Of a stretch of DNA of 64,000 nt, positions 15,196-36,589 are shown one piece after another. Within the stretch, counting starts at the first letter, position 1; the number at the start of each line of letters is the position of its first letter. The notes beneath the pieces are model-generated. The model saw only the letters and a list, made by a program, of their open reading frames with translations. It did not search any database and was not told the origin of the DNA. This DNA comes from Acidobacteriota bacterium (GTDB lineage: Bacteria; Acidobacteriota; UBA6911; RPQK01; JAJDTT01): positions 4,384,001 through 4,448,000 of the forward strand of contig CBDCJH010000002.1 of NCBI GenBank assembly GCA_965217775.1. Direction: 5' to 3'. The position numbers and the translations under genes are program-made.

Positions 15196-15645
15196 CTATT
15201 GACGACGCAAGATCCAGTGCCAGGTTCGAGTGAGATAGCGGCGCATCGACGTCACAATTGGGAGCCATTTCGCCGCAAAGTTTCCCGTCTCGGCGTCGGT
15301 ATTGGTGCTGAAGTACTGTTCGCGTTCCCACTCGCGTGCTCTTCTGGTCTTCAGGATCTCGTGCCTGGACAACTTTCTGGCCCATTGGATTTTGTTGTTG
15401 ATGATCCAGTAGTGAGATTGGCAGTTCTCACTCCAATTCCCAATGGACGGTGACAAGCTGACCGAAACGCCGTCGCATGTAAGCGTCCAACCTGTGGGAT
15501 GTAACGGGGTGTTGATCCCATTTCCGCAGCCACACGCACACAGGTGCTTGACGGCACGGTATCGACAACAGACATAAAGCTTGCCGGAGTCTAACGCTCG
15601 CGGGATCTCGTCTACAAATTCCGGTGTGACTTGTCGTATCTTCAC
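15196..15645 (-). CDS. DUF6527-family putative Zn-binding protein
   Basis: HLCACGCG...SLSPSIGNWSENCQSHYWI. Overlaps the ThiF gene stop. Confidence 0.75.
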   Translation of the reverse strand: MKIRQVTPEFVDEIPRALDSGKLYVCCRYRAVKHLCACGCGNGINTPLHPTGWTLTCDGVSVSLSPSIGNWSENCQSHYWIINNKIQWARKLSRHEILKTRRAREWEREQYFSTNTDAETGNFAAKWLPIVTSMRRYLTRTWHWILRRQ

Positions 15646-18650: not shown

Positions 18651-19586
18651 TTGACCAGAAATTTCATAATTGCCGCCAAGACAACCAACGACATTGACAG
18701 GCGCATCGAGCGTGTTCTGCGGGGGCTCGACTATCCCGACCCACCGCTCTGTCTGGAGGATGTGCGCGAGTTATTGCAGCTTGATCGTAAATTCTACACT
18801 GCGGAAAACCCAAGCGTCGTAAAGGAGGTCATCAGTCGAATGCGTGTTGCCGGAATCCAAGTGTACAAAAGGCCGACGTTGCTCATTGATGCGATCAAGA
18901 AGTCTTCGCTCAGAGCTCTATATCTTCCGGACCGCAAGCGAATTCTGCTGGACAAGACGTTGCCTAAACTTAAGCACCGCTGGAACGAGGCACACGAAAT
19001 CGGGCACAGCATAATCCCATGGCATCATGACATCATGCTCGGGGACAACCGTCTCACGCTCTCCCAAGATTGCCAAGAGCAGGTAGAGGCCGAAGCCAAT
19101 CTCGCGGCCGGCAGGCTGCTTTTTCTCGGTGACCGCTTCAGCGAGGAAGCCGAATCTCTAGAACCCACAATCGCGACCATACGAGAATTAAAAAAGACGT
19201 TTGGAAACACCCTTTCTACAACGCTTTACAGGTTCGTCGAGTCTGTCGGCGACAATCTTCCCGTCGCAGGTATGATCACGCGCCATCCGCACCCGTCGCG
19301 AAGAGCGGACAACTTCGATCCCTTGGATCCATGTCGACATTTCATTCGATCAGCAGCTTTCGAGCGAAATTTTAGGACAATATCTGAAGCAGTACTGTTT
19401 GCTGAGGTAGCTGGATATTGCGGCGCTCAACGTGGTGGGCCTTTGGGTGAAGACGAGGTTGTGCTTACAGACGATAACGGAAACCGCCACTGCTTCTACT
19501 TCGAGACGTTCTTTAATCGATACGACGCTCTGACGCTGGGTCGATATCTTCACCCTGTGTACCTTAGCACGCCAATATCGACGTAG
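18651..19586 (+). CDS. ImmA/IrrE-family metallo-endopeptidase
   Basis: RWNEAHEIGH (HExxH) and EAEANLAA. Confidence 0.85.
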   Translation: MTRNFIIAAKTTNDIDRRIERVLRGLDYPDPPLCLEDVRELLQLDRKFYTAENPSVVKEVISRMRVAGIQVYKRPTLLIDAIKKSSLRALYLPDRKRILLDKTLPKLKHRWNEAHEIGHSIIPWHHDIMLGDNRLTLSQDCQEQVEAEANLAAGRLLFLGDRFSEEAESLEPTIATIRELKKTFGNTLSTTLYRFVESVGDNLPVAGMITRHPHPSRRADNFDPLDPCRHFIRSAAFERNFRTISEAVLFAEVAGYCGAQRGGPLGEDEVVLTDDNGNRHCFYFETFFNRYDALTLGRYLHPVYLSTPIST

Positions 19587-19809: not shown

Positions 19810-21282
19810 TCAGGCAATCAGCTCGTGCACGACGTTTCCGTAGACGTCTGTCAAACGAAAATCCCGGCTGTTGTGGCGGAAGGTGAGCCGTTCATGATCC
19901 AGGCCCAGCAGGTGAAGAATCGTGGCGTGGAGATCGTGATGCGAGACGCGGTCCTTGATGGCGTGCATGCCAAGATCGTCGGTGGCGCCGTGGGTGATCC
20001 CCGGCTTGACGCCGCCGCCCGCCATCCACATGGAGAAGCCGTAGTGGTGATGGCCGCGGCCGAGGGATTCCTCCGTACGAGCCTCCTCCATCGGAGTGCG
20101 GCCGAACTCGGTGGCCCAAACGACGAGCGTCTCGTCCAGCAGCCCGCGTGACTTCAGGTCCATGATGAGGGCCGTGACGCCTTGATCGGTGCGCGCCGCG
20201 TTTGTGCGGTGGTTGTCGATGAGCCCGCCGCGATTTCCGTGCGCGTCCCATCGCCGCCCGTGGGCGCCGTCGAGAATCTCCACGAAACGGACCCCGCTCT
20301 CCACCAGCCGTCTCGCCGTCAGGCACTTCCTCCCGAATTCGGTGTCGCCGTAGAGCGCCTTCACCGACTTCGGTTCGTTTCGGATATCGAAGAGTTGCGG
20401 CGCTTCCATCTGCATGCGAAACGCCGTCTCGAATGCGGCGATACGCGCGTCGAGCTCGGGCTGAGTGGCGTGCATGCCGCGGTGGAGGCGATTCAACTTC
20501 CGCACCAGATCCAACTGCTTGCTCTGCTGGCCTCGGGTGAGAAATTTCGGCGCCGTGATGTGCGGCACGGGCGGTGTCCCGGCCTTGACGTCCGCCAACG
20601 TGGCCTGGTGGATTCCCGGGAGGAATCCGGCATCGTAAAGCGCACGCCCGCCGGACGGAAGGCCGTCCTTCATCACCACGAATCCCGGCATGTTCCGATT
20701 CTCTGTCCCCAGCCCGTAGGTTACCCAGGAGCCAAGACTAGGGTGGCCCTGTATGGAATAACCCGTGTGCATGAGGATCTGGCCGGTGGAGTGAATCGCC
20801 GAATCGGTGTGCATCGAGTTGATGAACGCGATTTCGTCGACCACTTTCGTCAGGTTCGGGAAGATCTCGCTGACCCAGGCGCCGCTCTGGCCGTAGCGCT
20901 TGAAGGAGAACACCGGCGGAACGATACGCGTGTTGGTGTAGTCCTTCTCCGGGTTCAGGCCTTCCAGGTCTTCCTTGGAGAAGATCTCTCGCGCCAATTT
21001 TCCGGCGTATTTGTTCAGAAGCGGCTTGTGGTCGAAGGTCTCAAGCTGGCTTGCGCCGCCGACCATGAACAGCAAGATGACGTTCTTCGCCTTGGGAGCG
21101 AAGTGTGGCTGTCTGGGTGCGAGTGGCTCGCTGAGGTCGGCCGCGGGTACGGCCGGCGCACCGATTGCCGTCTCGTCCGTGAGCAGGCTGGCCAGAGCGA
21201 TGCCGCCCAGGCCGAGTTCCTTGAGGAACCCACGGCGATCCCAACCGACCGGTGGAGTTCCGTAGTTTGCGTCAGTCAACAT
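19810..21282 (-). CDS. DUF1501 domain protein (Tat signal)
   Basis: RRGFLKE Tat motif, AKNVILLFMVGGASQLETFD, WATEFGRTP, GRGHHH. Confidence 0.9.
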   Translation of the reverse strand: MLTDANYGTPPVGWDRRGFLKELGLGGIALASLLTDETAIGAPAVPAADLSEPLAPRQPHFAPKAKNVILLFMVGGASQLETFDHKPLLNKYAGKLAREIFSKEDLEGLNPEKDYTNTRIVPPVFSFKRYGQSGAWVSEIFPNLTKVVDEIAFINSMHTDSAIHSTGQILMHTGYSIQGHPSLGSWVTYGLGTENRNMPGFVVMKDGLPSGGRALYDAGFLPGIHQATLADVKAGTPPVPHITAPKFLTRGQQSKQLDLVRKLNRLHRGMHATQPELDARIAAFETAFRMQMEAPQLFDIRNEPKSVKALYGDTEFGRKCLTARRLVESGVRFVEILDGAHGRRWDAHGNRGGLIDNHRTNAARTDQGVTALIMDLKSRGLLDETLVVWATEFGRTPMEEARTEESLGRGHHHYGFSMWMAGGGVKPGITHGATDDLGMHAIKDRVSHHDLHATILHLLGLDHERLTFRHNSRDFRLTDVYGNVVHELIA

Positions 21283-21416: not shown

Positions 21417-22059
21417 GTCGCGGTAGGGACGCCGGTTGCCCAGCGCCCCCCGCGCAGATCCGTGCGTTCCCGTTAAGGCACACGGCTCCTACCTCAGGTA
21501 GTGACGGCCGGCCGCGACGCCCACCGTATCCGACCCCCGCCTGTGTCACGCCAACCCGGCTCTGAGTCCGGTCCGTACTTTGGTGAGCCGAAATTCCCTT
21601 TGGTTCCACCCCTTCGCTCCACGGACTCCGCAGAGAGTTCCCCCTCCTTGTTCGCCCGCTTCATCACTACTATGGATGAATCCGATTGCTTCCTCTCTCC
21701 CCTCGTGGGGTACGGGTTCCTCCTTTCCCACAAGGCCCCGGCTCTCGCCGGGGTGAGAGCAAGCCCTCCCAGGTCCCGACACCAGATGTACGTACGTGCA
21801 TGGGTTCTTTGACACCGCAGAGCCCGGCTGCCCCTCACCCTGGCGGTCCAGCCGGTGTTGCCTTCGACCGCGACTACAGCCTCGGCACTTCCGATCAGGG
21901 AGCTTTCGATGCTCAATAGCCTGCCCATACGCACCGCTACCGACGCTTCGCCGACACCCTCACGGGTGCCCACGCTCGGCTCGCGGAGAAACGTGGATGG
22001 TTAGTCCTTCGTTTCAGCGGACTTTCACCGCCTATCTTGTGCCAGTTAGCCTGGCGCAC
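21417..22059 (-). mobile_element. ORF-less group II intron, copy 1 (643 nt)
   Basis: Minus strand starts GTGCGCC and ends with domain V GAGCCGTGTGCCTTAACGGGAACGCACGGATC and domain VI ...CCCTACCGCGAC. No RT ORF. Confidence 0.85.
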
Positions 22060-23294: not shown

Positions 23295-24776
23295 TCAGGC
23301 GATGATGTCGTGGACGACGTTGCCGTAGACGTCGGTCAGGCGGAAGTCGCGGCTGTTGTGGCGGTAGGTGAGCCGTTCGTGATCCAGGCCCAGGAGGTGG
23401 AGGATGGTGGCGTGGAGATCGTGATGCGAGACGCGGTTCTTGATGGCGTGCATGCCGAGTTCGTCGGTGGCGCCATAGGTGATCCCCCGCTTGACGCCGC
23501 CGCCCGCCATCCACATGGTGAAGCCGTAATGGTGATGGCTGCGGCCAAGGGTTGTTTTGGTCAGTGACCTGTCCGCCTCCTCAAACGGCGTGCGGCCGAA
23601 CTCGGTGGCCCAGACGACGAGAGTCTCGTCCAGCAGGCCGCGTGACTTCAGGTCGATGATGAGCGCGGTGATGCCCTGATCGGTGCGCGCCGCGTTGGTG
23701 CGGTGGTTCTTGATGAGCCCGCCGCGGTTGCCGTGGGCGTCCCATTGCCGCCCGTGGGCGCCGTCGAGAATCTCCACGAAACGGACTCCGCTCTCCACCA
23801 TCCGTCTCGCCATCAGGCACTTCCTTCCGAAGTCGGTGTCGCCGTAGAGCGCCTTCACCGAGTCCGACTCGTTCCGGAAATCGAAGAGCCCCGGCGCTTC
23901 CATCTGCATGCGAAACGCCGTTTCGAAGGCAGCGATGCGGGCGTCGAGCTCGGGCTGCGTTGGATGTATCCCGCGGTGGAGGCGATTCAACTTCCGCAAC
24001 AGATTCAACTGCTGGCGATGCTGCCCCGGGTTCAGAAACGACGGCGCCTTGATGTGCGGCACCGGCGGATTTCCGGGCGTGACGTCCGCCAGCGTGGCCT
24101 GGTGGTAACCGGGGAGGAATCCGGAATCGTAAAGCGCGCGCCCACCGTCCGACCGTCCGTCCGTCATCACCACGAATCCCGGCATGTTCCGGTTTTCCGT
24201 CCCCAGCCCGTAGGTCACCCAGGAACCAAGACTGGGGTGGCCCTGCCTGGAATAGCCCGTGTGCATGAGGATCTGACCGGGGCCGTGAATCGGCACATCG
24301 GCATACATCGATTTGATGAATGTGATGTCGTCGACCACCTTCGTCAGGTGCGGGAAGATCTCGCTGACCCAAGCGCCGCTCTGGCCATAGCGCTCGAAAG
24401 AGAACACCGGCGGCACGATTTTCGAGCTGTAGAACGTCTTTGACGGATTCAGGCCGTCCAGATCCTCTTTAGGGAAGATGTCCTTGGCCTCTTTTCCGCC
24501 GTACTTTTTCAGAAGCGGCTTGTGATCGAACGTCTCAATCTGGCTTGCGCCACCGACCATGAACAGGAAGATGACGTTCCTCGCCTTGGGAGTGAAGTGA
24601 GGCTGCCGGGGCGCAAGTGGATCGCTGAGATCAACCGCCGGCACGGCCCCTGCGCCGCTCGCCTTCGGGTCCGCGACCAGGCTGGCCAGCGCGATGCTGC
24701 CCAGGCCGAGTTCCTTGAGAAACCCACGGCGGTCCGGTCCAACCGGTCCCGCTCCGTAGGCTGCGTCAGTGGACAT
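23295..24776 (-). CDS. DUF1501 domain protein
   Basis: Paralogue of 19810-21282, overlapping the DUF1553 gene. Confidence 0.9.
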   Translation of the reverse strand: MSTDAAYGAGPVGPDRRGFLKELGLGSIALASLVADPKASGAGAVPAVDLSDPLAPRQPHFTPKARNVIFLFMVGGASQIETFDHKPLLKKYGGKEAKDIFPKEDLDGLNPSKTFYSSKIVPPVFSFERYGQSGAWVSEIFPHLTKVVDDITFIKSMYADVPIHGPGQILMHTGYSRQGHPSLGSWVTYGLGTENRNMPGFVVMTDGRSDGGRALYDSGFLPGYHQATLADVTPGNPPVPHIKAPSFLNPGQHRQQLNLLRKLNRLHRGIHPTQPELDARIAAFETAFRMQMEAPGLFDFRNESDSVKALYGDTDFGRKCLMARRMVESGVRFVEILDGAHGRQWDAHGNRGGLIKNHRTNAARTDQGITALIIDLKSRGLLDETLVVWATEFGRTPFEEADRSLTKTTLGRSHHHYGFTMWMAGGGVKRGITYGATDELGMHAIKNRVSHHDLHATILHLLGLDHERLTYRHNSRDFRLTDVYGNVVHDIIA

Positions 24777-26967
24777 AGATGAACTCGTTCAGGTTCATGA
24801 GCGAATGGCAGTATTGCACCAATGGGCCTGGAGCATCCGAGGACCCGGTCTCCCCGCTTTCCTCCAACGCACCGGCGCGCCGTTGACCGAGAAACGACAG
24901 GCCGATCTCGCGTTCTTCCGCAGTCGGCGGCCGGGAAAGAGCGATCCCGTAGGCCGTCTCGACCTGCCGGCCGGGATCGTCTCCGACCCTTTCCCGCACC
25001 CGTTGTGCGAAGCGCTCAGCCTGCTCCCACACGAATGGCGCATTCAGCATGAAGGCCGTGCCGCTCGGGGTCGTGCTGACGTCACGAAGGCCGATGCTCT
25101 GGGTGTTGTCGGGCGGGTCGAAGATCTTCAGCACCGGATGGAGGTTCAACCGCGGAGCCATGAGGTAGACGGACCGGCGCCAGGTGTCCGGCGTGTCCTG
25201 GAACGGGTTCTTGCGGTTGCCGATGGGAATGCTGGGCCCGTACAGGCCGGGGCGCAGAGCTCCGGAGACGCTCAACATGTGATCGCGGATGATTTCAGAC
25301 TCCATGCGCACGGGCCGGCGGTGCCACAGGTACTCGTTGTAGGCATCCTGCCGGGCCTGAGCCAATTTGGTGCCAGCCGCCTGTTTGTAAGCTGCGCTGT
25401 TCATGATCAGCCGGTGGATCGGTTTCAGTCGCCAGCTTTCCCGGATGAGCTGGGACGCGAGCCAATCCAGCAGATCGGGATGCGTGGGCTCGGTGCCGAG
25501 TTTGCCGAAATCATTCGGGGTGCTGACGATGCCGCGCCCGAAATGATGCTGCCAGAGACGATTGACGATCACCCGGGCCAGCAACCCGCCGGCGCCATGC
25601 TCCACGTCGGTGAGCCAGTTGGCAAGCATCCGAAGCTTCGGCGCTTCAAGCTGCGCCTCGGGGCCAGCGGCGGCCTCGGGACGGGGCCGCCAATCCTCCG
25701 CGCTGCGCCCGTCCCCCATCAAGACGCGCAGGAACCCCGGCTCGACCGGCTTGACGGGGCTCTCCCAACTGCCAGCGGCCAGTAGATGGGGGGTGGTCAC
25801 CGCGAGGGCGACGAACTTGCCCCCTGCATCCGGTTCTTCCTCAGCTTCGTCGAAGAATACGGCCGTCAACTGGTAGTACTCTTCGGCCGTGATCGGGTCG
25901 ATCTTGTGGTCGTGGCACCGCGCACACCCGACCGTCATGGCAAGGAACGCTTGACCGGTCGCCGACACCATGTCGTCGAGGCGGTGAAACTTGCGTTCGT
26001 TGGGATTTTCGGTCGTGCCCAGGTTGGTTCCCATCTGAACGAACATGCCCAGGTCGCGAAGTGCGGCGGGGAAACCCTTCGGAGCCCCGGCAATCTGGCA
26101 GCGGACGAACTCATCGTAAGGAAGGTCGTCATTGAAAGCGCGAATCACGGCGTCGCGGTATCGATACGCGTCCTCTCGAATTGCGTTGTCCCCCTCATGG
26201 GCTCCTTTGCTCTCGCCAAAGCGAGCCACATCCAACCAGTGCCGTCCCCACCGTTCCCCGTAGTGCGGGTTGGCGAGCAGCCGGTCGACGAGTTCGTGAA
26301 AGGGATCCGCAGAGGAATCTCGAACGAACGCCTGGACTTCTTCGGGGGCGGGCGCGAGACCGATCAGGTCGAAGTAGGCGCGGCGAATCAGGGTGGGCCG
26401 ATCGGCCTCCTGCGCCGGGCGAAACTGCATCTCGTGCAGCTTGGCGAGGAGGAAACGATCGATGGGCGAGTCTGTCCACGCGGCCTCGTCCGAACTTGCC
26501 GCCGAGATCTGAGGCGGGTCGACAGCACGCAGGGGGTGGAAGGCCCAGTGCCGGCGTCCTGACTCGAGATCCGTTTTCCCGGGTTCAGCGGCCTGCGCAT
26601 CCCTCGGATACGGCGCGCCGAGGGTCACCCATTGGACGAAATCAGCGATGACCGAGTCAGACAGTTTGCCGCCGGGCGGCATTGCCAAGCTGCGATCGGT
26701 GTGCTTGAGGGCCTCGATCAGAATGGACTGGTCGGGTCGGCCCGGCACGACGGCGGGGCCCCGCGACCCGCCTTGCTCGACACCCTCCCGCGTGTCGAGC
26801 TGCAGTTTCCCAAACAGCATTCCCGCGCGGTCGGCCTCCGCCGAATGACACTGATAGCAGCGCTCCGACAGAACCGGACGGATCTTCTTTTCGAAGAAGT
26901 TGATACGGTTCTGCCTGGGTTCCTCGGGGGCTCCGAGCAGGCTGAGGGCAATTACGATAAGGATCAC
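24766..26967 (-). CDS. Planctomycete cytochrome c / DUF1549 / DUF1553 (PSD1) protein
   Basis: CYQCH, PHYGERWGRHWLDVAR, CARCHDHK, PTHPDLLDWLA. Confidence 0.9.
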   Translation of the reverse strand: MILIVIALSLLGAPEEPRQNRINFFEKKIRPVLSERCYQCHSAEADRAGMLFGKLQLDTREGVEQGGSRGPAVVPGRPDQSILIEALKHTDRSLAMPPGGKLSDSVIADFVQWVTLGAPYPRDAQAAEPGKTDLESGRRHWAFHPLRAVDPPQISAASSDEAAWTDSPIDRFLLAKLHEMQFRPAQEADRPTLIRRAYFDLIGLAPAPEEVQAFVRDSSADPFHELVDRLLANPHYGERWGRHWLDVARFGESKGAHEGDNAIREDAYRYRDAVIRAFNDDLPYDEFVRCQIAGAPKGFPAALRDLGMFVQMGTNLGTTENPNERKFHRLDDMVSATGQAFLAMTVGCARCHDHKIDPITAEEYYQLTAVFFDEAEEEPDAGGKFVALAVTTPHLLAAGSWESPVKPVEPGFLRVLMGDGRSAEDWRPRPEAAAGPEAQLEAPKLRMLANWLTDVEHGAGGLLARVIVNRLWQHHFGRGIVSTPNDFGKLGTEPTHPDLLDWLASQLIRESWRLKPIHRLIMNSAAYKQAAGTKLAQARQDAYNEYLWHRRPVRMESEIIRDHMLSVSGALRPGLYGPSIPIGNRKNPFQDTPDTWRRSVYLMAPRLNLHPVLKIFDPPDNTQSIGLRDVSTTPSGTAFMLNAPFVWEQAERFAQRVRERVGDDPGRQVETAYGIALSRPPTAEEREIGLSFLGQRRAGALEESGETGSSDAPGPLVQYCHSLMNLNEFIYVH

Positions 26968-27052
26968 GCGACTACCTTACACTTGTAATCGGGATTTTAT
27001 GTTGGATTGCAGAAGGAATTCCACCAGGCGAACGGACGCGTGCCCTGGAACC

Positions 27053-27925
27053 TCAGTACGTCCCGATCCCCAGCACATCCTTCTCCCAGGGCGTCAGTCG
27101 TTTGATCTGTTCGGGAGAAAGGGCGCGAACCTCCGTGTACTCGGGGATGGTCTCCTCGAGGCCGAGCAGCTTCCGCATTTCCGGGAGGAGGCGATCCTGC
27201 ACACCCTGTGGAATGACGCGGGCGTTGTCGATCATCCCCTTGACCCACCATCGCTGGAAAAAGGCCAGTATGGAATGCTGGACGTCGTCGCTGCGGTTGA
27301 TGCCGCTGGCGTGCCAAAGCGCCGCATCCCAAACGATGGCCGTACCCGCGGGAACGACCGCTTGGTGGGATCCCGGGGAGTCGGCATCCGGGTCGGGGAT
27401 CTCACAGGACTTGTGAGTGCCGGGCCAAACCAGGGTAGCTCCGTTCTCGGCGGTGAAATCCACAACCGCCCAGGCGACGTTGATCGCCATCGGGTAGTGC
27501 TTGCCGCCCTCGAAGGGCACGATGCTGAATGGAGACCGGTCGGCGTGAATCTGGAATCCGCGCCCGGGTTCTCTGCCCTCGCTGGGTCGAATCGAACGCG
27601 CCGTTGCGTCGTACAGGACCATGTCCCCACCCAGGTATTCACGGCACACGGAGAGGACCGGCGGGTTCAGGTAGAAGGTCTCGAAGCAAGGATGCTTGCC
27701 CACGATGCAGTGGGCGGACCAGCAGTGCTCGGACGAAGTTCCCAGGCGCAGAGCGATCTCGCTCTCCCGTTGGTAGATGTCTTCCGCCGCTTGGATGGCT
27801 GGAGCCAGAAACTCGGCGTCGAGAGCGTCCGGGATGATCGTGTAACCCTGCTCCCCAAGTTCTCCAACGTGGAACTCCAGTTCTGACGGCGTTAGCTCTC
27901 TACCGCTCGAGAAGCTGCTCTTCAT
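27053..27925 (-). CDS. Phytanoyl-CoA dioxygenase (PhyH) family protein
   Basis: HAD facial motif, DFTAENGATLVWPGTH, LWHASG. Confidence 0.9.
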   Translation of the reverse strand: MKSSFSSGRELTPSELEFHVGELGEQGYTIIPDALDAEFLAPAIQAAEDIYQRESEIALRLGTSSEHCWSAHCIVGKHPCFETFYLNPPVLSVCREYLGGDMVLYDATARSIRPSEGREPGRGFQIHADRSPFSIVPFEGGKHYPMAINVAWAVVDFTAENGATLVWPGTHKSCEIPDPDADSPGSHQAVVPAGTAIVWDAALWHASGINRSDDVQHSILAFFQRWWVKGMIDNARVIPQGVQDRLLPEMRKLLGLEETIPEYTEVRALSPEQIKRLTPWEKDVLGIGTY

Positions 27926-28121
27926 GAATCATGCCCTACAAATGCCGTTTTGGAAACGCCAATGCCAAGCGGTGCCTGCGTTAGTCAAACAGCCTACTAC
28001 ACGATTTGCTTCGCGAAAACACTTGGAGAAGGTGACTGTACCCTTCGCCTGCGGCAGAATTTGGTGCAGATGTGCAATCAGCCAAATGGATTATCCTCCA
28101 CGAAACAGTAACGATACCCCA

Positions 28122-29135
28122 TCATGGAAGCGAACATGACAACAATCGATCCACGTATGAAGAAATCCCAGTGGTAAACCAAGAGTCTGAGGAGAAGCGC
28201 TCCGATTCCAATCGCGGTGCTGGCCCCCTCGCATCACCTCGGATCAGCACTACCCCACCTTTTTCTACGACCTTACCGATTTGTACAACGTCGGCACCTA
28301 AATCAGCTGCGATATTAAGCATCGCCCGCGAGTCATTATGAGCGACTGCGACCAAGACGTTCCAGTCACCCCATCCTAGCCAGAATCTAGCAGGGTCAGC
28401 GATTCCAGTCTGTTCCCAGTTAGATACCGTCAGTCGCTCCAAATCGATCTCAATGCCCACTTTATTCGCATCTGCTAGCTGTCCTAACGAAGCAAGCAGA
28501 CCATCGCTGTTGTCAATAGAAGCCTTTATATGCCCTGCCCGGCCAAATTCTGGCAGTACCCGCAGTTGCGAAACGGGACGATAAAGTCTTGACACCCGTG
28601 AATCCACCTGGAAGCCAGCCTTTATCAGCAGCGCGTCTCTCCAAAAACTACCCCCTTTACCGATGCTGAATATCAGATCACCGACATCGGCACCTGACCT
28701 CGAAAGCCCTCCAGCCGACGGAACTGTCCCGACCGCTGTGCCCGTAGCCGAAAATTCCTTACCCTCTTTTAGATTGCCACCTAAATACTCAAGTTTCTCA
28801 GTGACACAAGCATCTGCGATGCCCTGCAGCAGCCGGTCCAGTTCCTTCACAGACGCGGCCGGTGGGGCCTCAATGGAAGCCACAAAACCACCCGGAGTCG
28901 CACCAGCCGCGGCTAGGTCGGACGCGTTGATCGTAACAAGGAGCCAGCCTTTCCAGTAAGGATCGGAGTCACCCGCAAGGACAAATGCTGCCGGCTCGGG
29001 TACCGGATCTGTCGTGATTGCTAATCGGCTTCCTGCCAGATCAAAAAGAGCACAGTCATCCCCTGCAACAGAGCAGTGCCTGCGGATGACTTCGTTAATG
29101 AGTCGCCGTTCACCAATGTCGTAAAGCTTCAACAT
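28122..29135 (-). CDS. ThiL-like (thiamine-monophosphate kinase / PurM superfamily) protein
   Basis: GERRLI, GDDCA, NASDLAAAGA, GGN, RSGADVGD, IDNSDGL. Confidence 0.8.
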   Translation of the reverse strand: MLKLYDIGERRLINEVIRRHCSVAGDDCALFDLAGSRLAITTDPVPEPAAFVLAGDSDPYWKGWLLVTINASDLAAAGATPGGFVASIEAPPAASVKELDRLLQGIADACVTEKLEYLGGNLKEGKEFSATGTAVGTVPSAGGLSRSGADVGDLIFSIGKGGSFWRDALLIKAGFQVDSRVSRLYRPVSQLRVLPEFGRAGHIKASIDNSDGLLASLGQLADANKVGIEIDLERLTVSNWEQTGIADPARFWLGWGDWNVLVAVAHNDSRAMLNIAADLGADVVQIGKVVEKGGVVLIRGDARGPAPRLESERFSSDSWFTTGISSYVDRLLSCSLP

Positions 29136-29144
29136 TAAGCCTAC

Positions 29145-30269
29145 CTATTTGGTGAGTATCAATACGTGCTCACCGGTGATGCTCGGGGTCTGCCGGCGCT
29201 GAGAGGATACGCGGCGATTTATATCGACTACCAAGTCAAATCCAGCAACCTTTAGAGATTCCTTCAGATCTGATATAACCGAATCTCGCGTTTTCGACTC
29301 GCCGATCACGATGACGCAAGCGCCATTCGGTCGCAAGCAACGATAAGTTTCCTCGAATACGGATCGTAGATCAGTCAAGTATTCTTTTCTCGCTGCCTTT
29401 CGATGCCTTTTACTCCGTGCTCCGATTTCGATCCGCCGTAGTGGCTCGATCTCAAAGCCAAACCACTCCATTGAGAGACGCTGAGACTTTACGTAGTCGC
29501 TCACTCCGAAGTAGGGTGGTGAGGTCACGACTAAATCGACACTATTTTCTCTAAATTTCTTCAGTGCGTGCCTCGCGTCACCGCAGATCACGTCTACCGG
29601 CGCTATGCTGTCGATCCCAGCCTCCACAATGTATTGGTCGCGGTCCCTATAGGCCTTGGCGAGTCGCTCAAGGAAAGCATTGTACAGTTTTAAGACATCA
29701 GCCGACTTATTGGCTTTAGGCGTAGAGTTGTCACAGATGTAACCCCAATGGCGATCTTCTCTGCAAGAGGGCAGAAGGCAAGCAGAAAACGCCGCTTCCG
29801 CAATCGTTTTTTGCGCGCCCTCAAATGCCCCGATCAAACCCCACATACTGGCGAGTCTCTCGAGGACCGATTCTGTGTACCACTTCTCTCCTTGCAGGCC
29901 TGCCGGCAAGGTTGTGGTCCACGACGCATCATTGTCGAGTGGTTGATAATCGGTTCCGATCAGTTCAGAAACGTATTCTTCGATGGTCGATGCTCTAGTT
30001 GGCAAAGTCTTAGCTTTACTGATCATATATGAAACAGGATTCACATCGATGCCGATAGCGTTTCGACCGAGCCGCTGAGCTTCAACAAGAGTTGTACCGG
30101 AGCCCATAAACGGGTCGAGAATTGTTTGCCCCGGCTTACTTAAAAGTCCGATCAAGCTGGTTGGCAACTGCGATACAAAGCGAGCCGGGTGCCAATGAAT
30201 AGTTGAGAACAGAGACTCACTCTGCGACCCAGCGAAATCCCAGTCAATCCTTTTAAGGCGCGAAATCAA
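29145..30269 (-). CDS. N4/N6 DNA methyltransferase
   Basis: HWHPARF, LDPFMGSGTT (motif I), TSPPY (motif IV). Confidence 0.85.
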   Translation of the reverse strand: MISRLKRIDWDFAGSQSESLFSTIHWHPARFVSQLPTSLIGLLSKPGQTILDPFMGSGTTLVEAQRLGRNAIGIDVNPVSYMISKAKTLPTRASTIEEYVSELIGTDYQPLDNDASWTTTLPAGLQGEKWYTESVLERLASMWGLIGAFEGAQKTIAEAAFSACLLPSCREDRHWGYICDNSTPKANKSADVLKLYNAFLERLAKAYRDRDQYIVEAGIDSIAPVDVICGDARHALKKFRENSVDLVVTSPPYFGVSDYVKSQRLSMEWFGFEIEPLRRIEIGARSKRHRKAARKEYLTDLRSVFEETYRCLRPNGACVIVIGESKTRDSVISDLKESLKVAGFDLVVDINRRVSSQRRQTPSITGEHVLILTK

Positions 30270-31524
30270 ACGAGTAGTTAAAATTGTCGATTCTCCCTTT
30301 GGGCCCTATCCGTAGTTGCAATATGCGATCTTCTCCGAGCTTGCCTTCTTTAACAATCGATATGGCGGCACGCCGACAGTTCTTTAAACTAATGTTTGTG
30401 CCATGCTTCACGAACCCATAGACGATGGTGCTAGAACTCCATTTGCCATACTTCCAGCATTCCCCACTAGTCGGGTCTGTGAAGTTCACCTCCTTGGAAA
30501 ACGAGCCCCGATCCTCAAAAACGTACGCATAACAACATGTTGCCCGAAACGTACCGCTCACAATTCGATTGGTGACATTTTGTACTGCCTTTCTATCATC
30601 ATAGCCCAAATCGCTAATCGAGCCTGCCAGTTGCATAGCAAACACCATTGACGGCAGACGCCCCAAATACTCCTGGAGAAGTAACTTAGTCGTCGGTTTT
30701 TGCCGAAGGATTTCGATTAACTCCTCATCGTACAGGTCCCACCAGTCCTGATCTAAGACATCTTCCTGGAGTGCTACACTCAGTGCCTGAGAAAGGACTG
30801 CCTGCGCTGCCACCGTATAAGGGTCGAAGACTAGGGTCTCATAGACAGATTGGCGTACTTGCGCCCACTCTGCGACTAACGGGGACATTTCTTCGTGTAG
30901 CAAGAGTTTGCCATCCGTGGCGACATCCAACGAACGTGCGAGCTTAACAGCTAACCGGGGATTTGCCTCCATCCCGAGTGCCCAAGCCATTCTCATTACG
31001 TTGTCGAGATTGTCCAAGTCCATACTCCCGAATAAAAGCGGGGACATAGCATGTTTGGACTTTAGGATCTCCCGCACAAGATCTATATCGATGCCATGCT
31101 TCGCCATGATGTCACGGAACTCAAGGCTACGACCTCCAAACGGCTGGTGAGCCCGGTTCTCTGGAGCATGGCAACCAACCAAAACGAGATCTGGTACAGC
31201 CTCATGGTGCCAATACGAACGTTCCCGCAGATGGTATTCAAAAAGATGGCCGAATGGTGGAGTCCCAACGTCATGGAGCAGAACTGCCGCCATGAATGCA
31301 AGCCGCTCGTGATCTGAGAATTGAATCCGAACCATGTTCCCACAGAGATGCAGGACACCAAGAGTGTGAGAGTACCGACGGATTTCACCTAGCGTCGCAA
31401 GGCTCGGTGAGAATGTGTTTAGCAAACGAATTTGCGAGAGCCTTCGAACCTCCGGGCTAAACAGTAGCTTGTCAATTAACGCCGGGGTCTCGAACTGTCC
31501 ATAGAGGGGATCGAATACTCTCAT
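30253..31524 (-). CDS. HD-domain phosphohydrolase (SAMHD1/dNTPase-like)
   Basis: RRLSQIR, RYSHTLGV, LLHDVGTPPFGH, HHE, DLDNLD. Confidence 0.85.
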   Translation of the reverse strand: MRVFDPLYGQFETPALIDKLLFSPEVRRLSQIRLLNTFSPSLATLGEIRRYSHTLGVLHLCGNMVRIQFSDHERLAFMAAVLLHDVGTPPFGHLFEYHLRERSYWHHEAVPDLVLVGCHAPENRAHQPFGGRSLEFRDIMAKHGIDIDLVREILKSKHAMSPLLFGSMDLDNLDNVMRMAWALGMEANPRLAVKLARSLDVATDGKLLLHEEMSPLVAEWAQVRQSVYETLVFDPYTVAAQAVLSQALSVALQEDVLDQDWWDLYDEELIEILRQKPTTKLLLQEYLGRLPSMVFAMQLAGSISDLGYDDRKAVQNVTNRIVSGTFRATCCYAYVFEDRGSFSKEVNFTDPTSGECWKYGKWSSSTIVYGFVKHGTNISLKNCRRAAISIVKEGKLGEDRILQLRIGPKGRIDNFNYSFDFAP

Positions 31525-32756
31525 GGACGCCTCCGAAAGAGTTCGAAAATCGGCGGCCCGCAGATCCAGCCCACGATTAACACGCCAAGCTGCCCGCATA
31601 TGCGGGCGATTGTAGAGTTAATGTCTTCGAGAAAGCCGGCGAGGACAGTAACAAATGTCATCGCTACAATTGGGATAACGCGATCCCACCAAATTCCCGG
31701 ACCTCGTTCGCGGAGTAAGCTGTAGGTGAGCCTTCTCTGGACGCCAAGGGTGTGCCGACTTTGCTTGGCAAGCTTTAGGAGCAAAGCAAGCCATGCATTG
31801 TCTTTGCTGGCAGGTGCACGTTCCGGCTCAGGCCTATAGAGAAAATTATTCTTTTCCAGTTCGTGAACCAATGCGCCAAGAATTCGCTCAGCTCGAAGTC
31901 GGAGAAACGTGGGAGCGTTTGGCAGAAAGCCAGCGATCGCCAATAGGATCGCCTTCGGAACAATGAAATAGTCACGACCCCACCGCGGAGAGCCATTGGA
32001 GGAATACCTGAAACTACAGAAATAGACTCCCAGGTCGCCGAGTTCTGGATCCAGCTGGCGGCCGATCCTGTTGGCTGCATTTCGAACGCCCTTGCTCACT
32101 TGCTTACCAGAGATGGCGACAAGCGCCGCGATCGCCGCAATTCTGGGCAAAGGAGCCAAATCGATACCAGAAACGACTTTGGATTCGAGCCACTCAGCCG
32201 CTTTTTCGAGACGTTCACGAGCTTCCCTATTAGCTATTGAAAAATCGAGAAGTGAAAGGATCACGACCGCCGTCGTTAGCACTTGCGGTGTCTGATCATG
32301 TTCTGCGCTTGATTCCCAGTAGTGGCCCCATTGCCCGCCAGGGAGTTGAGTGTTCCATAGCCTCTGGGCGACCTCTCGTCGTAGCGACTTCGCCGACTCG
32401 TCCTTGATCCCGCCCAATGCTATGTGTAGATACGCGACCCGGAGTGTCTGCAGAAACCACTGTGCCGGCTGCCGCGCAGAGTCTTGCCTTTGATTCCACC
32501 AGAACTGAAGTGTCTCCTGAGCTTGTCTCACTGCTGCGGAGTTTTTGCGGTTAGCCGACTGCAGAACAATGAGGCCCGAAGCTGTTCCATACAAACCAAT
32601 CTGGTGGTGACTTCGCTCCATTTCGAGGAACTGTCCCCACGCTTTACACTCGGAGCAGTTTGGGCCATCTTCGATCTGGGCCTCAAACCGACCGGCTAGC
32701 CGATCAAGAACGACATCAATTTTTTTGGATTGCAGCATCAACGATGAGATTCCCAA
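31521..32756 (-). CDS. Prenyltransferase/terpene-cyclase-fold protein with two C-terminal TM helices
   Basis: QW-like motif LWNTQLPGGQWG, TTAVVILSL, AAEWL, hydrophobic C-terminus. Confidence 0.5.
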   Translation of the reverse strand: MGISSLMLQSKKIDVVLDRLAGRFEAQIEDGPNCSECKAWGQFLEMERSHHQIGLYGTASGLIVLQSANRKNSAAVRQAQETLQFWWNQRQDSARQPAQWFLQTLRVAYLHIALGGIKDESAKSLRREVAQRLWNTQLPGGQWGHYWESSAEHDQTPQVLTTAVVILSLLDFSIANREARERLEKAAEWLESKVVSGIDLAPLPRIAAIAALVAISGKQVSKGVRNAANRIGRQLDPELGDLGVYFCSFRYSSNGSPRWGRDYFIVPKAILLAIAGFLPNAPTFLRLRAERILGALVHELEKNNFLYRPEPERAPASKDNAWLALLLKLAKQSRHTLGVQRRLTYSLLRERGPGIWWDRVIPIVAMTFVTVLAGFLEDINSTIARICGQLGVLIVGWICGPPIFELFRRRP

Positions 32757-33385
32757 TAGCTCTCACGGAGCAATGCGGCGGCCCGTTTCGCGTTCGAGTA
32801 GCTAGCATGCAACCGCCAGTCTGCAAGCTCAGGAAACCCAAGGTTCGACGCGACCATGTACCGCGCGAACTGTCGTGGTAGTCGCCCCAGACTGCGAAAC
32901 AAACGATAGTCATGTGGATCGGGTGATATCAAAAAGTAGTCCGGAAGGTCGTCAGCTAAGACTACCGCATCAGAAAGGCTGTTCGCTGTGGAGAACAGTT
33001 GACACTGTTTCGCAACATCATCCATCACTTCAGGTCCGCGCGGAAAAAACAGGAAGTGGGCGTGAAAGCAGTGCGATTCATGTGCTCCTGGTAAGCCCGC
33101 ACAAAGTGGTACTCGCCCGTGCTCGGTCAACAAACACGAGCCGTGCCGAGCGATCAAGAATGTCCGAATCTCCTCGGCGAAGCTAAGAAACTCGTCGATG
33201 CCGGACTTGAGCGCATCTGCTGCCGACCGAACATGAAGTGGGGCGCCGACAACTGAGTAATCCTTCACGATTGGCCCAAGACCGCAGAGAGCGATTCCAG
33301 CCTCGGTCCGAGAATAGACTAGAGCTTGGTCTGGCGAACAGAGGAAGCAATCACTTACTCGCCGTGGTTGGGTGAGATTATTCAT
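32738..33385 (-). CDS. HIT-like nucleotide hydrolase/transferase
   Basis: CFLC, GPIVKDYSVV, TEHG, HCFHAHF. Confidence 0.65.
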   Translation of the reverse strand: MNNLTQPRRVSDCFLCSPDQALVYSRTEAGIALCGLGPIVKDYSVVGAPLHVRSAADALKSGIDEFLSFAEEIRTFLIARHGSCLLTEHGRVPLCAGLPGAHESHCFHAHFLFFPRGPEVMDDVAKQCQLFSTANSLSDAVVLADDLPDYFLISPDPHDYRLFRSLGRLPRQFARYMVASNLGFPELADWRLHASYSNAKRAAALLRESYWESHR

Positions 33386-33736
33386 AGAGTGACTACCAAC
33401 GCCAGGAGAACGCGGCTTTGTGGAAACTACCGAATCTTCGATCGGGTCAGACGTTCGGATCCTGATTGATAACCGCCTTTTGAGGGATCTGATAATGAGG
33501 GTCGAAGACCGGACCATCATCAGGTGTTTGATCGAAGCCGGCATGCTGCTCGGAATATCGGTGCTCGACCACATAATCCTTGGTGACCGGTAAGCCCAAC
33601 TCAGCTTCCAGTAGAAGGGATGAAACTAGTCCGTTGATTCCACGGCTCCTATCATCTTCAAAAGACCAAGCGTCACAGAGGATCGGCAACACACACCTGG
33701 CGGGGACAGAAATGGTGACTGTCCCCTTCTTGCTTC

Positions 33737-34520
33737 CGTTGTCCCCCTCATGAGCTCCTTTGCTTTCACCAAAACGAGCCACATCCAACCAGTGCCGTCC
33801 CCACCGTTCCCCGTAGTGCGGGTTGGCGAGCAGCCGGTCAACGAGTTCGCGACAGGGATCCGCAGAGGAATCTCGAACGAACGCCTGGACTTCTTCGGGG
33901 GCGGGCGCGAGACCGATCAGGTCGAAGTAGGCGCGGCGAATCAGGGTGGGCCGATCGGCCTCCTGCGCCGGGCGAAACTGCATCTCGTGCAGCTTGGCGA
34001 GGAGGAAACGATCGATGGGCGAGTCTGTCCACGCGGCCTCGTCCGAACTTGCCGCCGAGATCTGAGGCGGGTCGACAGCACGCAGGGGGTGGAAGGCCCA
34101 GTGCCGGCGTCCTGACTCGAGATCCGTTTTCCCGGGTTCAGCGGCCTGCGCATCCCTCGGATACGGCGCGCCGAGGGTCACCCATTGGACGAAATCAGCG
34201 ATGACCGAGTCAGACAGTTTGCCGCCGGGCGGCATTGCCAAGCTGCGATCGGTGTGCTTGAGGGCCTCGATCAGAATGGACTGGTCGGGTCGGCCCGGCA
34301 CGACGGCGGGGCCCCGCGACCCGCCTTGCTCGACACCCTCCCGCGTGTCGAGCTGCAGTTTCCCAAACAGCATTCCCGCGCGGTCGGCCTCCGCCGAATG
34401 ACACTGATAGCAGCGCTCCGACAGAACCGGACGGATCTTCTTTTCGAAGAAGTTGATACGGTTCTGCCTGGGTTCCTCGGGGGCTCCGAGCAGGCTGAGG
34501 GAAATTACGAAAAGGATCAC
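33737..34520 (-). pseudogene. Truncated duplicate of the DUF1549/DUF1553 gene
   Basis: Near-identical to 26184-26967 and cut at the palindrome at 33709. Confidence 0.9.
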
Positions 34521-34605
34521 GCGACTACCTTACGCTTGTAATCGGAATTCTACGTTGGGTTGTAGAAGCAAATCCACCAGGCGAACGGACGCGCGCCCTG
34601 GAACC

Positions 34606-35478
34606 TCAGTACGTCCCGATCCCCAGCACATCCTTCTCCCAGGGCGTCAGTCGTTTGATCTGTTCGGGAGAAAGGGCGCGAACCTCCGTGTACTCGGGGA
34701 TGGTCTCCTCGAGGCCGAGCAGCTTCCGCATTTCCGGGAGGAGGCGATCCTGCACACCCTGTGGAATGACGCGGGCGTTGTCGATCATCCCCTTGACCCA
34801 CCATCGCTGGAAAAAGGCCAGTAAGGAATGCCGGACGTGGTCGCTGCGGTTGATGCCGCTGGCGTGCCAAAGCGCCGCATCCCAAACGATGGCCGTACCC
34901 GCGGGAACGACCGCTTGGTGGGATCCCGGGGAGTCGGCATCCGGGTCGGGGATCTCACAGGACTTGTGAGTGCCGGGCCAAACCAGGGTAGCTCCGTTCT
35001 CGGCGGTGAAATCCACAACCGCCCAGGCGACGTTGATCGCCATCGGGTAGTGCTTGCCGCCCTCGAAAGGCACGATGCTGAATGGAGACCGGTCGGCGTG
35101 AATCTGAAACCCGCGCCCGGGTTCCCTGCCCTCGCTGGGTCGAATCGAACGCGCCGTTGCGTCGTATAGAACCATGTCTTCGCCCAGGTACTCACGGCAC
35201 ACGGAGAGAACCGGCGGGTTCAGGTAGAAGGTTTCGAAGCAAGGATGCTTGCCCACGATGCAGTGGGCGGACCAGCAGTGCTCGGACGAAGTTCCCAGGC
35301 GCAGAGCGATCTCGCTCTCCCGCTGGTAGACGTCTTCGGCCGCCTCAATGGCTGGAGCCAGATACTCGGCGTCGAGAGCGTCCGGGATGATGGTGTAACC
35401 CTGATCCCCAAGCTCTCCAACGTGGAAATCCAGTTCCGAAGGCGTCAGCTCTCTTCCGCTCGCGAAGCCGGTCTTCAT
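34606..35478 (-). CDS. PhyH-family dioxygenase, second copy
   Basis: Same length (290 aa) and nearly the same sequence as 27053-27925. Confidence 0.9.
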   Translation of the reverse strand: MKTGFASGRELTPSELDFHVGELGDQGYTIIPDALDAEYLAPAIEAAEDVYQRESEIALRLGTSSEHCWSAHCIVGKHPCFETFYLNPPVLSVCREYLGEDMVLYDATARSIRPSEGREPGRGFQIHADRSPFSIVPFEGGKHYPMAINVAWAVVDFTAENGATLVWPGTHKSCEIPDPDADSPGSHQAVVPAGTAIVWDAALWHASGINRSDHVRHSLLAFFQRWWVKGMIDNARVIPQGVQDRLLPEMRKLLGLEETIPEYTEVRALSPEQIKRLTPWEKDVLGIGTY

Positions 35479-35728
35479 GAGTCATGCCCCAAATATCGTT
35501 GCCGAAATTGCCATTGCTTGGCAGCCTTTACAATTGTCAACCAGCGTACTACACGATTTCTTTCGCGAAAACACTCAAAGGAGGTGACTGCCCCCTTCCC
35601 GGTTCGCGCCCCTGTGGAGATGGTGCCTGCTCCCTCGCGCGCGCGCGCCCGCACACAAAAAATCAGGGACAGTCAACTTCTCGCTTGACCACTTGACAAC
35701 TTCCGCGTCGTGGATTCACATTATACAC

Positions 35729-35974
35729 ATGAAGCGCACAAATCTTGTGCTTGATGAGCGAATTCTGGAAGAAACCTTACGTCTCAGCGGCGAGCGTACT
35801 TACTCGAAAGCAGTGACACGAGCGATGACAGAATTCGTTCGTAGGGTAAAGGCAGGTCGCATTTTGCAACTGGCCGGTTCGGGCCTTTGGGAGGGGGACT
35901 TGGCCGAGATGCGCAACGACCGACTGTGCAGCCAACCCGAGCCTGAGCACGGGACCGGCCGTGTACCTCGTTGA
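35729..35974 (+). CDS. vapB: VapB-family antitoxin
   Basis: MKRTNLVLDERILEE...WEGDLAEMR. Confidence 0.85.
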   Translation: MKRTNLVLDERILEETLRLSGERTYSKAVTRAMTEFVRRVKAGRILQLAGSGLWEGDLAEMRNDRLCSQPEPEHGTGRVPR

Positions 35975-36359
35975 CACCTCGGTCTGGATCGAGGTGTTTG
36001 CACGGCCCGCCCGAGTCCACCTCGAATCGGTAGCCCACCTGGACGAAGTCGTCACCTGTCTTCCGGTCATGCAGGAGGTGCTCCAAGGCTTCCGCGACGA
36101 GAGCGCGTTCCGGATTGCACGAGAGGCAATGCACGCGTTTCCGCTCGTCGAGGCACCGTTGGAGACGGCAGTGTTCGACGAGGCGGTCGACCTGTACCGC
36201 TTGGCGCGTCGTATCGGTATCACAGTGCGTTCAAGTGTCGACTGCCTGATCGCGGTCTGCGCGATCAGGAACGACTTGACTCTGTTACACCACGACCGCG
36301 ACTTCGACCGGATCGCCCGAATTTCACCGTTACGTTCACGGAGTCTGGGAAGACGTTGA
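35961..36359 (+). CDS. vapC: VapC PIN-domain toxin
   Basis: LVDTSVWI, DCLIA, HHDRDF. Confidence 0.9.
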   Translation: MYLVDTSVWIEVFARPARVHLESVAHLDEVVTCLPVMQEVLQGFRDESAFRIAREAMHAFPLVEAPLETAVFDEAVDLYRLARRIGITVRSSVDCLIAVCAIRNDLTLLHHDRDFDRIARISPLRSRSLGRR

Positions 36360-36589
36360 TGTCGACGTGCTACGACTGATGCTGAGCAGCAGCGTGACTC
36401 CGAGTCCCGGTGTCGATTCCATGAGGCCGGCCAGCGTTGGGAACGCGCTCGGACGATCGTGAGATTGCCATTGCTTGGCAGCGTTTACAGTTGCCGACTA
36501 GCCTACTACACGACTTCCTTCGCGAAAACACTCAGAAAAGCTCCTCCACCGGCCCGATCCGGCATACGCCTAGTAGAAACACGCAGGAG

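Follow-up and report, generated by a model that had tools for sequence, protein, structure and literature searches.

A rare five-gene cassette of an Acidobacteriota bacterium, conserved across phyla, as a candidate defence system with an exchangeable effector part

Joining a constant domain to a membrane hairpin, a TIR domain or a patatin is an effector architecture found in CBASS (cyclic oligonucleotide-based antiphage signalling system), Pycsar (pyrimidine cyclase system for antiphage resistance) and similar abortive-infection systems. The known defence genes of the dGTPase/SAMHD1 kind act alone, and DNA methyltransferases belong to multi-gene systems such as type II restriction-modification (R-M), bacteriophage exclusion (BREX) and the methylation-associated defence system (MADS). 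Here, we characterized a cassette of five minus-strand genes, g1 to g5 (28122-33385), in a 64,000-nt stretch of the genome of an Acidobacteriota bacterium (GenBank assembly GCA_965217775.1, contig CBDCJH010000002.1, positions 4,384,001 to 4,448,000). The whole stretch is referred to as the window, and coordinates are those of the window. In order of transcription, the genes encode a HIT-like protein, an (alpha/alpha)6-toroid protein with a membrane hairpin, an HD-domain hydrolase, a DNA methyltransferase and a ThiL-like kinase. We conclude with high confidence that they form a real, conserved and mobile five-gene system. We put at roughly 55% the probability that this system is an abortive-infection-type defence against phages or mobile elements that has not been described before, with the toroid protein as its effector.

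The likeness of the cassette to CBASS and Pycsar lies in its variants, which use a patatin, a CAP12/PycTIR-type TIR domain or a transmembrane segment together with one constant, non-catalytic domain. However, Pfam and PADLOC detected no CD-NTase, pyrimidine cyclase, SAVED, STING or cNMP-binding domain in it; the constant domain is an (alpha/alpha)6 toroid, and it is accompanied by a ThiL-like kinase, a HIT protein, an HD hydrolase and a DNA methylase. The g3 protein belongs to the same branch of the HD superfamily as the dGTPase/SAMHD1 defence proteins and conserves their H...HD...D ligands, but the known genes act alone whereas this HD gene is one of five. With type II R-M, BREX and MADS, the cassette shares a DNA amino-methyltransferase encoded within a mobile operon of several genes. 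Unlike type II R-M, the cassette has no cognate endonuclease: g1, g2, g3 and g5 match no nuclease model in Pfam or PADLOC, which agrees with a preliminary description of the locus that was made from the sequence alone and had listed no restriction endonuclease. Comparison of the flanks of the first nine genome loci revealed no conserved sixth gene. PglZ, BrxC and BrxL of BREX are lacking, and among MADS components only g4 finds a match, a weak one (mad2, 6.1e-15 in PADLOC; 13 vs. 720 bits in NCBIfam); the mad2, mad5 and mad8 matches in some flanks of other loci belong to neighbouring systems. The g4 methylase also differs from those of type II R-M, BREX and MADS in being circularly permuted and unusually conserved across phyla.

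No described system was matched by the cassette, as the preliminary description had anticipated. PADLOC returned only generic MTase_II models and a weak dGTPase match, with no model of version 2 matching g1, g2 or g5, and none of the five proteins belongs to a system-specific family in NCBIfam release 20 (June 2026). The combination of genes is not mentioned in the main text of the literature that was covered, including the DefensePredictor paper and a language-model defence preprint, whose supplements lie outside that coverage and might list the family. Among apparent text matches, 'ThiL' in a preprint on YprA was an author's surname, and 'HIT' in papers on defence prediction was the ordinary word 'hit'. 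Modular killing effectors are known in defence systems; the enzyme set and the sensor domain of this cassette are without precedent.

The arrangement of the genes is that of an operon. As first described, all five overlap or abut: g1 (32738..33385, 215 aa) starts at M64 of a 278-aa open reading frame (ORF), in agreement with the end coordinate of the preliminary description, the starts having been refined by alignments of homologues; the ATG of g2 (31521..32738, 405 aa) shares one base with the g1 stop codon (TGATG); g3 (30253..31524, 423 aa) overlaps the stop codon of g2 in ATGA; g4 (29145..30269, 374 aa) overlaps g3 by 17 nt; and g5 (28122..29135, 337 aa) follows after a gap of 9 nt. The GC content of the module (28047-33713) is 0.523, relative to 0.602 in the rest of the window and 0.623 in the genome, which bears out the lower GC noted at the outset, and GC at third codon positions is 0.50-0.55 in the five genes vs. 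0.77-0.82 in adjoining host genes. Scans for promoters (5 vs. 3.5 in shuffled sequence) and terminators (6 vs. 6.3) did not rise above the shuffle level, and no Rfam family was matched within 27500-36500. The best explanation of the five genes is a single horizontally acquired operon that is a copy of a rare, self-contained cassette; their arrangement is far beyond chance because the identical gene order recurs in unrelated genomes.

That recurrence was established by pattern scans built on the g2 alignment, which yielded 11 loci in 185,579 species genomes and 38 in metagenome contigs (49 loci). The 11 loci comprise three from Acidobacteriota, five from Alphaproteobacteria (Bradyrhizobium huanghuaihaiense and Acidocella among them) and those of Xanthomonas bonasiae, Stenotrophomonas geniculata and one Aureliella, so that cassette loci occur in Acidobacteriota, Pseudomonadota (Gamma- and Alphaproteobacteria) and Planctomycetota. 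When the five window proteins were compared with the 49 loci by tblastn, and a locus was counted as testable for a partner if its contig was long enough, g1 was found beside g2 in 39/43 loci, g3 in 33/35, g4 in 22/24 and g5 in 18/20. The complete order of five genes is kept in 15 of the 17 loci that are long enough on both sides, so the conserved co-occurrence proposed as a check in the preliminary description was indeed observed. The misses comprise a decayed remnant (L008), a degenerate locus (L044), one in which no upstream g1 was found (L040), a variant system (L038, described below) and L018, in which an integrase is followed by g2-g3-g4 and then by a g1-like gene. The first nine genome loci have no flanking ORF of at least 100 aa in common with one another at E<=1e-5. 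Among 14 related loci, the pairwise-identity matrices of g1, g3, g4 and g5 correlate with r of 0.81-0.90 (91 pairs), a descriptive measure. Conserved order, unshared flanks and co-varying identities together indicate that the five genes are inherited and transferred as one unit. The g2 profile was detected in 0/60 relatives (eight from the genus, another six from the family and another 46 from the order). One further protein, P0140, is a fusion of g2 to a g3-like HD domain.

The surroundings of the cassette in other genomes are those of mobile islands and defence islands. Among 100 flanking ORFs from 18 loci, Pfam identified three resolvases, three phage integrases, an IS66 transposase, TrwB/TrwC conjugation proteins and two ArdC proteins, together with two N6_Mtase/Eco57I/MmeI-type enzymes, McrBC and a type I specificity subunit. 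PADLOC added two type IIG enzymes, type I R-M, mad2/mad5/mad8, PDC-S33 and HmaC. In the Bradyrhizobium locus (L010), the immediate neighbours of the cassette are McrB-McrC on one side and a patatin gene on the other.

The strongest indication of function comes from g2. Its AF2 model, with a predicted local distance difference test (pLDDT) score of 89.8, is an (alpha/alpha)6 toroid over residues 1-345, and hydropathy places a two-helix membrane hairpin at the C terminus (about 349-402). The preliminary description had assigned a prenyltransferase fold with two transmembrane segments; the two-helix hairpin stands, and the fold is no more specific than a generic (alpha/alpha)6 toroid. VIA-align gave tied Z scores of 20-22 for sugar epimerases, AprG, GH76, drimenyl-diphosphate synthase, squalene cyclase and complement TED; no Pfam family was matched, TIGR01787 scored 12 vs. 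322.7 bits, and matches in the ESM Atlas were only to clusters named 'hypothetical protein' or prenyltransferase/squalene-cyclase-like. A word search returned 27 homologues, and the g2 profile found 367 representatives at E<=1e-3 among 1.84 billion sequences, 133 of them at E<=1e-30. Since g2 has no signal peptide and carries basic residues before the first and after the second helix, its toroid probably faces the cytoplasm. A complex prediction for g2 (1-345) with g1 scored 0.01, which is uninformative either way on binding.

In three loci (L010, L043 and L039), a gene for a patatin-like phospholipase lies about 2-60 nt 3' of g5 on the same strand. Counting the window, 18 loci reach 600 nt or more beyond g5; these are three of them, and tblastn found the patatin gene in none of the other loci. 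The three patatins are 67-69% identical to one another, and the two that were scanned singly matched the PADLOC model 'Effector Phospholipase' at 3e-68 and 2.4e-66. The g2 proteins of the same three loci lack a hydrophobic segment at the C terminus: their 19-aa hydropathy peaks at 0.70-0.95, vs. at least 1.49 in the remaining 18 of the 21 g2 proteins evaluated. In L010 and L043, g2 is only 341-344 aa long. Thus, the hairpin is missing from g2 exactly in the loci with an appended CBASS-type patatin gene. A third form is seen in P0103 (500 aa), in which an N-terminal TIR domain of the CAP12/Pycsar type (PF10137 1.7e-29, CBASS TIR effector 4.5e-47, PycTIR 3.8e-34) is fused to a g2-like toroid (g2 hidden Markov model, 8e-52; 24% identity to the window g2) that has no hairpin. 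No g2 fusion turned up among proteins of 752-2145 aa, a result that counts as weak evidence. The variant locus L038 (1254-5501) encodes a g2-like toroid with a hairpin (402 aa), beside which stand a 621-aa kinase of the PPDK_N type and a 167-aa HIT/DcpS_C-like protein; a further protein, of 201 aa, weakly matches class-I adenylate cyclases, and neither an HD enzyme nor a methylase is present. At a distance of about 3 kb there is a gene for a REase-ARP/PD-(D/E)XK nuclease. Judged from these architectures, g2 resembles a defence effector whose killing part can be exchanged, and it is our candidate effector. The exchange of hairpin, patatin and TIR domain lends independent support to the membrane effector suggested earlier, and argues for, rather than demonstrates, a defence function.

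The remaining four proteins retain invariant catalytic and metal- or ATP-binding residues. The AF2 model of g1 (pLDDT 90.7) is a two-lobed HIT fold, so the HIT-like label given to it earlier was correct, and both Foldseek (CWF19L1 3e-8, Apa2 7e-4, then Fhit, GalT-like proteins and aprataxin) and a profile search of the PDB (CWF19L1 3.6e-4) place it in the CwfJ/Apa2/GalT branch; its fold matches include CDP-diacylglycerol pyrophosphatase and Ap4A phosphorylase. Despite the shared fold, g1 differs from this branch in having no match in Pfam (HIT, CwfJ and GalT included), and it found none in PADLOC, NCBIfam or PHROG. An alignment of 39 sequences shows CxxC, EHG, C95 and C106-x-H108-x-H110 to be invariant. 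The full histidine triad HxHxHxx is not present; the sequence is C106-x-H108-x-H110-x-L112, in which H108 and H110 align to the first and second triad histidines of NitFhit in a profile alignment and an invariant leucine takes the third position. In the transferase/phosphorylase branch of the HIT superfamily, the third histidine is likewise replaced.

For g3, the earlier assignment as an HD dNTPase-like enzyme holds, with one refinement. The protein matches Pfam HD (7.9e-6) and, in PDB profile searches, 2q14 (1.5e-19), EF1143 (2.6e-12) and SAMHD1 (about 1e-10), so the SAMHD1/EF1143-like profile is sound. All 26 aligned sequences keep H78, H109-D110, H118, H132-E133 and D194xD196NxD199N unchanged (numbering of the long ORF). 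The motif itself, however, is HD(V/I)GTPPFGH, compared with HDxGHGPFSH in the structures matched, so that a threonine replaces the histidine of HDxGH present in 2q14 and another HD protein. The scores lie far under the dGTPase cut-offs of NF002205 (21.8 vs. 439 bits) and TIGR01353 (19.1 vs. 152), and the PADLOC match is weak (PDLC02374, 18.5 bits, E 2.6e-4). The homologue in a Rhodospirillales metagenome-assembled genome (L007, 2134-3390) was left out of the alignment for its one internal stop, and may be a pseudogene or reflect a sequencing error.

The preliminary description had also recognised a DNA methyltransferase with SPPY in g4, and by its sequence g4 is a DNA N4-C/N6-A amino-methyltransferase (PF01555, 8.6e-27, 95 bits vs. 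a gathering cut-off of 26.7; PADLOC MTase_II, 9.6e-34). The closest solved structures are TTHA0409 (2.7e-21), N4C methyltransferases (2e-15) and M.PvuII (1e-13), with CcrM also near. Relative to these, g4 is circularly permuted, with motif I (DPFxGSGT) N-terminal and TSPPY at 249-253, both invariant in 23 sequences. The ThiL-like kinase proposed for g5 is likewise upheld: it carries AIRS and AIRS_C domains (Pfam), its nearest solved structures are ThiL (1e-30), HypE (9e-12) and PurM (6e-8), and it shares with ThiL the PurM-superfamily fold and the Asp-rich ATP/Mg motifs (GDDC, TTDP, NASD and DNSDGL, conserved in 18 sequences). We therefore refer to g5 as a ThiL-like ATP-dependent kinase of the PurM superfamily, on sequence grounds. 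However, g5 scores 163.6 bits against TIGR01379, under the cut-off of 184.15, has its own C-terminal motif (PRLESERFxxDSWF, 18 sequences) and always occurs in the cassette. A role as the housekeeping thiL was rejected, since the genome has a separate canonical thiL (239.2 bits) about 720 kb away; the preliminary description had listed no other thiamine gene at the locus. In public records, homologues of the cassette proteins are named only generically, as 'HD domain-containing protein', 'thiamine-phosphate kinase', 'hypothetical protein' or 'Ap4A HIT family hydrolase'.

How might such a set of proteins act in abortive infection? In the best explanation, the cassette moves between phyla as cargo of mobile elements and defence islands. 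The toroid domain would be the regulatory or receptor part of the effector, and the hairpin, patatin or TIR domain would kill by membrane damage or loss of NAD+. The pairing of a kinase with a GalT/Apa2-type HIT protein suggests synthesis or remodelling of a phosphoanhydride-linked, nucleotide-like ligand, and it recurs, with a different kinase, in L038; the ThiL-like kinase could convert an X-phosphate to an X-diphosphate and the HIT protein act as a nucleotidyl-transferase. The SAMHD1-like HD enzyme may degrade that ligand or drain deoxynucleoside triphosphates (dNTPs), and the SPPY methyltransferase may mark host DNA, so that only unmethylated invading DNA triggers the system. The earlier overall view of the locus as a candidate defence or modification system with a membrane effector is supported, as both of its tests that could be run on sequence sets, co-occurrence and matching to known systems, came out in its favour. 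A bolder form of the defence reading is that the cassette represents a new class of signalling immune system, in which kinase and HIT protein would make a phosphoanhydride-linked messenger new to immunity, a toroid receptor would drive the hairpin, patatin or TIR domain, the HD enzyme would reset the signal and methylation would separate self from non-self. The messenger might then be a dinucleoside polyphosphate, a methylated nucleotide diphosphate or, conceivably, a thiamine-adenine nucleotide. Drawn from protein families, this fuller proposal is speculative, and we hold it to be rather unlikely.

Several observations weigh against a defence function or against parts of this mechanism. The cassette is very rare (11 pattern-scan loci per 185,579 species genomes), and g2 was absent from viral contigs by pattern scan and from plasmid and phage collections by tblastn; P0118, a second-tier g2 relative, likewise had no match in the plasmid collection. 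The three patatin loci are close kin (g4 is 69% identical between L010 and L043), so they count as one evolutionary event, and the TIR-toroid fusion is a singleton on one 4.9-kb metagenome contig. The flank counts have no background set, so the defence genes among them do not amount to a statistical enrichment. There is no cyclase, CD-NTase or other known signal synthase, and the idea of a ligand therefore derives from enzyme classes. The threonine at the HDxGH position means that dNTPase activity of g3 is not assured. Many R-M methylases have variable specificity domains, and g4 is 46-56% identical across phyla, its middle domain included, a conservation that could point to one fixed, possibly non-DNA substrate. 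To our knowledge, signalling-type systems carry no methyltransferase, and we know of no precedent for a methylase paired with CBASS-like effectors. Systems gated by methylation normally carry a nuclease or a large ATPase, and Pfam and PADLOC found neither in the cassette.

The competing account that survives best makes the HD enzyme itself the effector of a methylation-gated, restriction-like or dNTP-depleting system with no diffusible signal. The methylase would mark self DNA, the HD enzyme would starve phage replication of dNTPs or act as an HD nuclease, and the HIT protein, kinase and toroid would serve as regulators or anchors. Such a role would suit the profile matches of g3 to the dNTP triphosphohydrolases EF1143 and SAMHD1, its weak dGTPase match in PADLOC, its wholly invariant metal ligands, the constancy of the methylase in the five-gene form (22/24 testable loci) and the g2-g3 fusion P0140. 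It leaves unexplained, however, why the hairpin of the toroid is swapped for a patatin or a TIR domain, and L038 keeps toroid, kinase and HIT protein without HD enzyme or methylase. In addition, the known dGTPase defence genes act alone, and g3 has both the threonine substitution and a score of 21.8 vs. 439 bits for the NCBIfam dGTPase family. We regard this account as unlikely, but credible enough to be kept in mind.

A less probable route, and one we doubt, is that the cassette is a DNA or nucleotide modification pathway with no killing arm. Here the methylase-like protein would act on DNA, kinase and HIT protein would activate a donor and the HD enzyme would trim nucleotides, yielding a non-canonical base or backbone mark that shields the DNA of a carrier element from restriction or alters the host epigenome. 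Indeed, g4 is a bona fide DNA amino-methyltransferase with intact SPPY and S-adenosylmethionine motifs, three nucleotide- or phosphate-handling enzymes stand alongside it, Pfam and PADLOC detected no nuclease, and anti-restriction ArdC and conjugation genes occur in some flanks. Yet patatin and TIR partners are killing modules of defence systems rather than modification enzymes, a membrane-anchored toroid has no obvious role in DNA chemistry, the L038 variant dispenses with the methylase, and no relative of the known hypermodification enzymes was found in Pfam or PHROGs.

It is more improbable still that the genes form a mobile accessory metabolic operon, handling thiamine phosphates, dinucleoside polyphosphates or nucleotide-activated lipid or isoprenoid intermediates at the membrane, with the toroid binding substrate in the manner of terpene cyclases and sugar epimerases. 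No DNA methyltransferase would belong in a pathway of this kind, even if g5 is nearest to true ThiL (PDB profile 1e-30; TIGR01379 163.6 bits) and the g1 fold list holds CDP-diacylglycerol pyrophosphatase and Ap4A phosphorylase. For g2, sugar epimerases, GH76 and terpene cyclases rank equally as fold matches, and a patatin is a lipid hydrolase, but the patatins here match CBASS effector models (3e-68) and the TIR fusion matches CBASS and Pycsar effectors. The cassette is found in 0/60 relatives, its flanks hold integrases, R-M, McrBC and MADS genes, and no conserved transporter or biosynthetic neighbour accompanies it. Finally, chance adjacency of five unrelated genes is already refuted: of the 17 loci that allow a full test, which span three phyla and have unrelated flanks, 15 keep the order and strand, start and stop codons overlap, and the divergences of the genes are correlated.

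In the window, the module is exactly enclosed by two same-strand copies of a palindromic motif, GGTGACTGTACCCTTC at 28031..28046 (+) and GGTGACTGTCCCCTTC at 33714..33729 (+), which with their GAGAA-type left arms start at about 28026 and 33709, the two sites between which the module had been placed in the preliminary description. Homology with genomes of the same genus stops at 28046, at the left boundary site, and the right boundary site abuts the breakpoint of a truncated PSD1 copy. The host segment at 26186-28046, containing a PhyH-like gene and the 5' part of a DUF1549-type gene, is repeated as a direct duplicate at 33739..35598 (1.86 kb, 95% identity). In six closed genomes of the genus, the duplicated segment is single-copy and runs straight into the sequence that follows 35598. 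Because the site is uninterrupted in these six genomes, the module, a site copy and the partial duplicate constitute a 7552-bp insertion specific to this genome. In its middle part the duplication is perfect, with more divergence at the PhyH-like 5' end. What the second copy retains of the DUF1549-type gene is a truncated ORF (33447-34520) reading into the module.

Four public sequencing runs contain the stretch; all come from one study, and the source sample is possibly among them. A 5963-nt contig from one run spans 27842-33804, with both junctions, at zero differences, and therefore the junctions are not peculiar to this assembly. In all four runs (4/4), a contig connects the right-end site of the module (33728) to its left-end site (28026) through 35 further letters, and its depth is similar to that of the module. 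The assembled genome lacks this join; its matching sides are short, and it does not figure among the regular joints. It may represent the module in circular or tandem form, or else the locus of another strain.

The boundary sites belong to a larger array. The motif (GAGAA)GGTGACTGTCCCCTTC(TC) is present in 28 copies between 150 and 43909, vs. 0.83 expected in the window; 26 of these are on the + strand, mostly in intergenic positions, and the sites include 22507, 28031, 33714, 35583, 36798 and 39394. With at most one mismatch, the genome contains 78 copies and none of a reversed control. A looser 14-mer occurs 225 times in the genome in 25 clusters of at least three, many of them mostly or wholly in one orientation, and the largest cluster, with 29 sites, is that of the window. 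The segment 35599-36813, between the sites at 35583 and 36798, is precisely missing in two genomes of the genus (L059 and L062), in which a single site joins the same flanks. This precise absence indicates that the sites delimit strain-variable cassettes, the five-gene module included. By inspection, that segment encodes a small ORF pair resembling a VapB/VapC toxin-antitoxin. Further cargo of the array at 13238-14698, 15642-16835 and 18651-19586 comprises a DDE transposase, a DUF6791 and ThiF (E1-like) protein and an IrrE/M78 peptidase, proteins of kinds that are common on mobile or defence islands. Two DUF1501 paralogues (19810-21282 and 23295-24776, each matching PF07394 at about 1e-138) and short direct repeats at 22000/23206 (72 nt, 99%) and 38238/39437 (117 nt, 91%) suggest recurrent local duplication in the region. 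The boundary sites were not taken for those of an integron, since no IntI was found: the best match in the genome to the integron integrase model TIGR02249 scored 80.6 bits vs. a cut-off of 265, and none lies near the window. The motif, a 16-23-nt palindrome, is presumably unlike attC. Arrays of strain-variable cassettes delimited by such sites point to an unrecognised route of gene capture.

If the cassette is a defence system, it would represent a gene set that no current detector recognises. Three families without a known immune role would then enter immunity, namely a ThiL/PurM-type kinase, a CwfJ/Apa2-like HIT protein and an (alpha/alpha)6-toroid sensor, and DNA methylation would be linked to CBASS-like killing modules, two strategies so far seen apart. 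The pair of kinase and HIT protein suggests a route to a new nucleotide-type messenger, for which the toroid would be a new small-molecule receptor. As the cassette is small (5.3 kb) and self-contained, it is easily moved into a laboratory strain.

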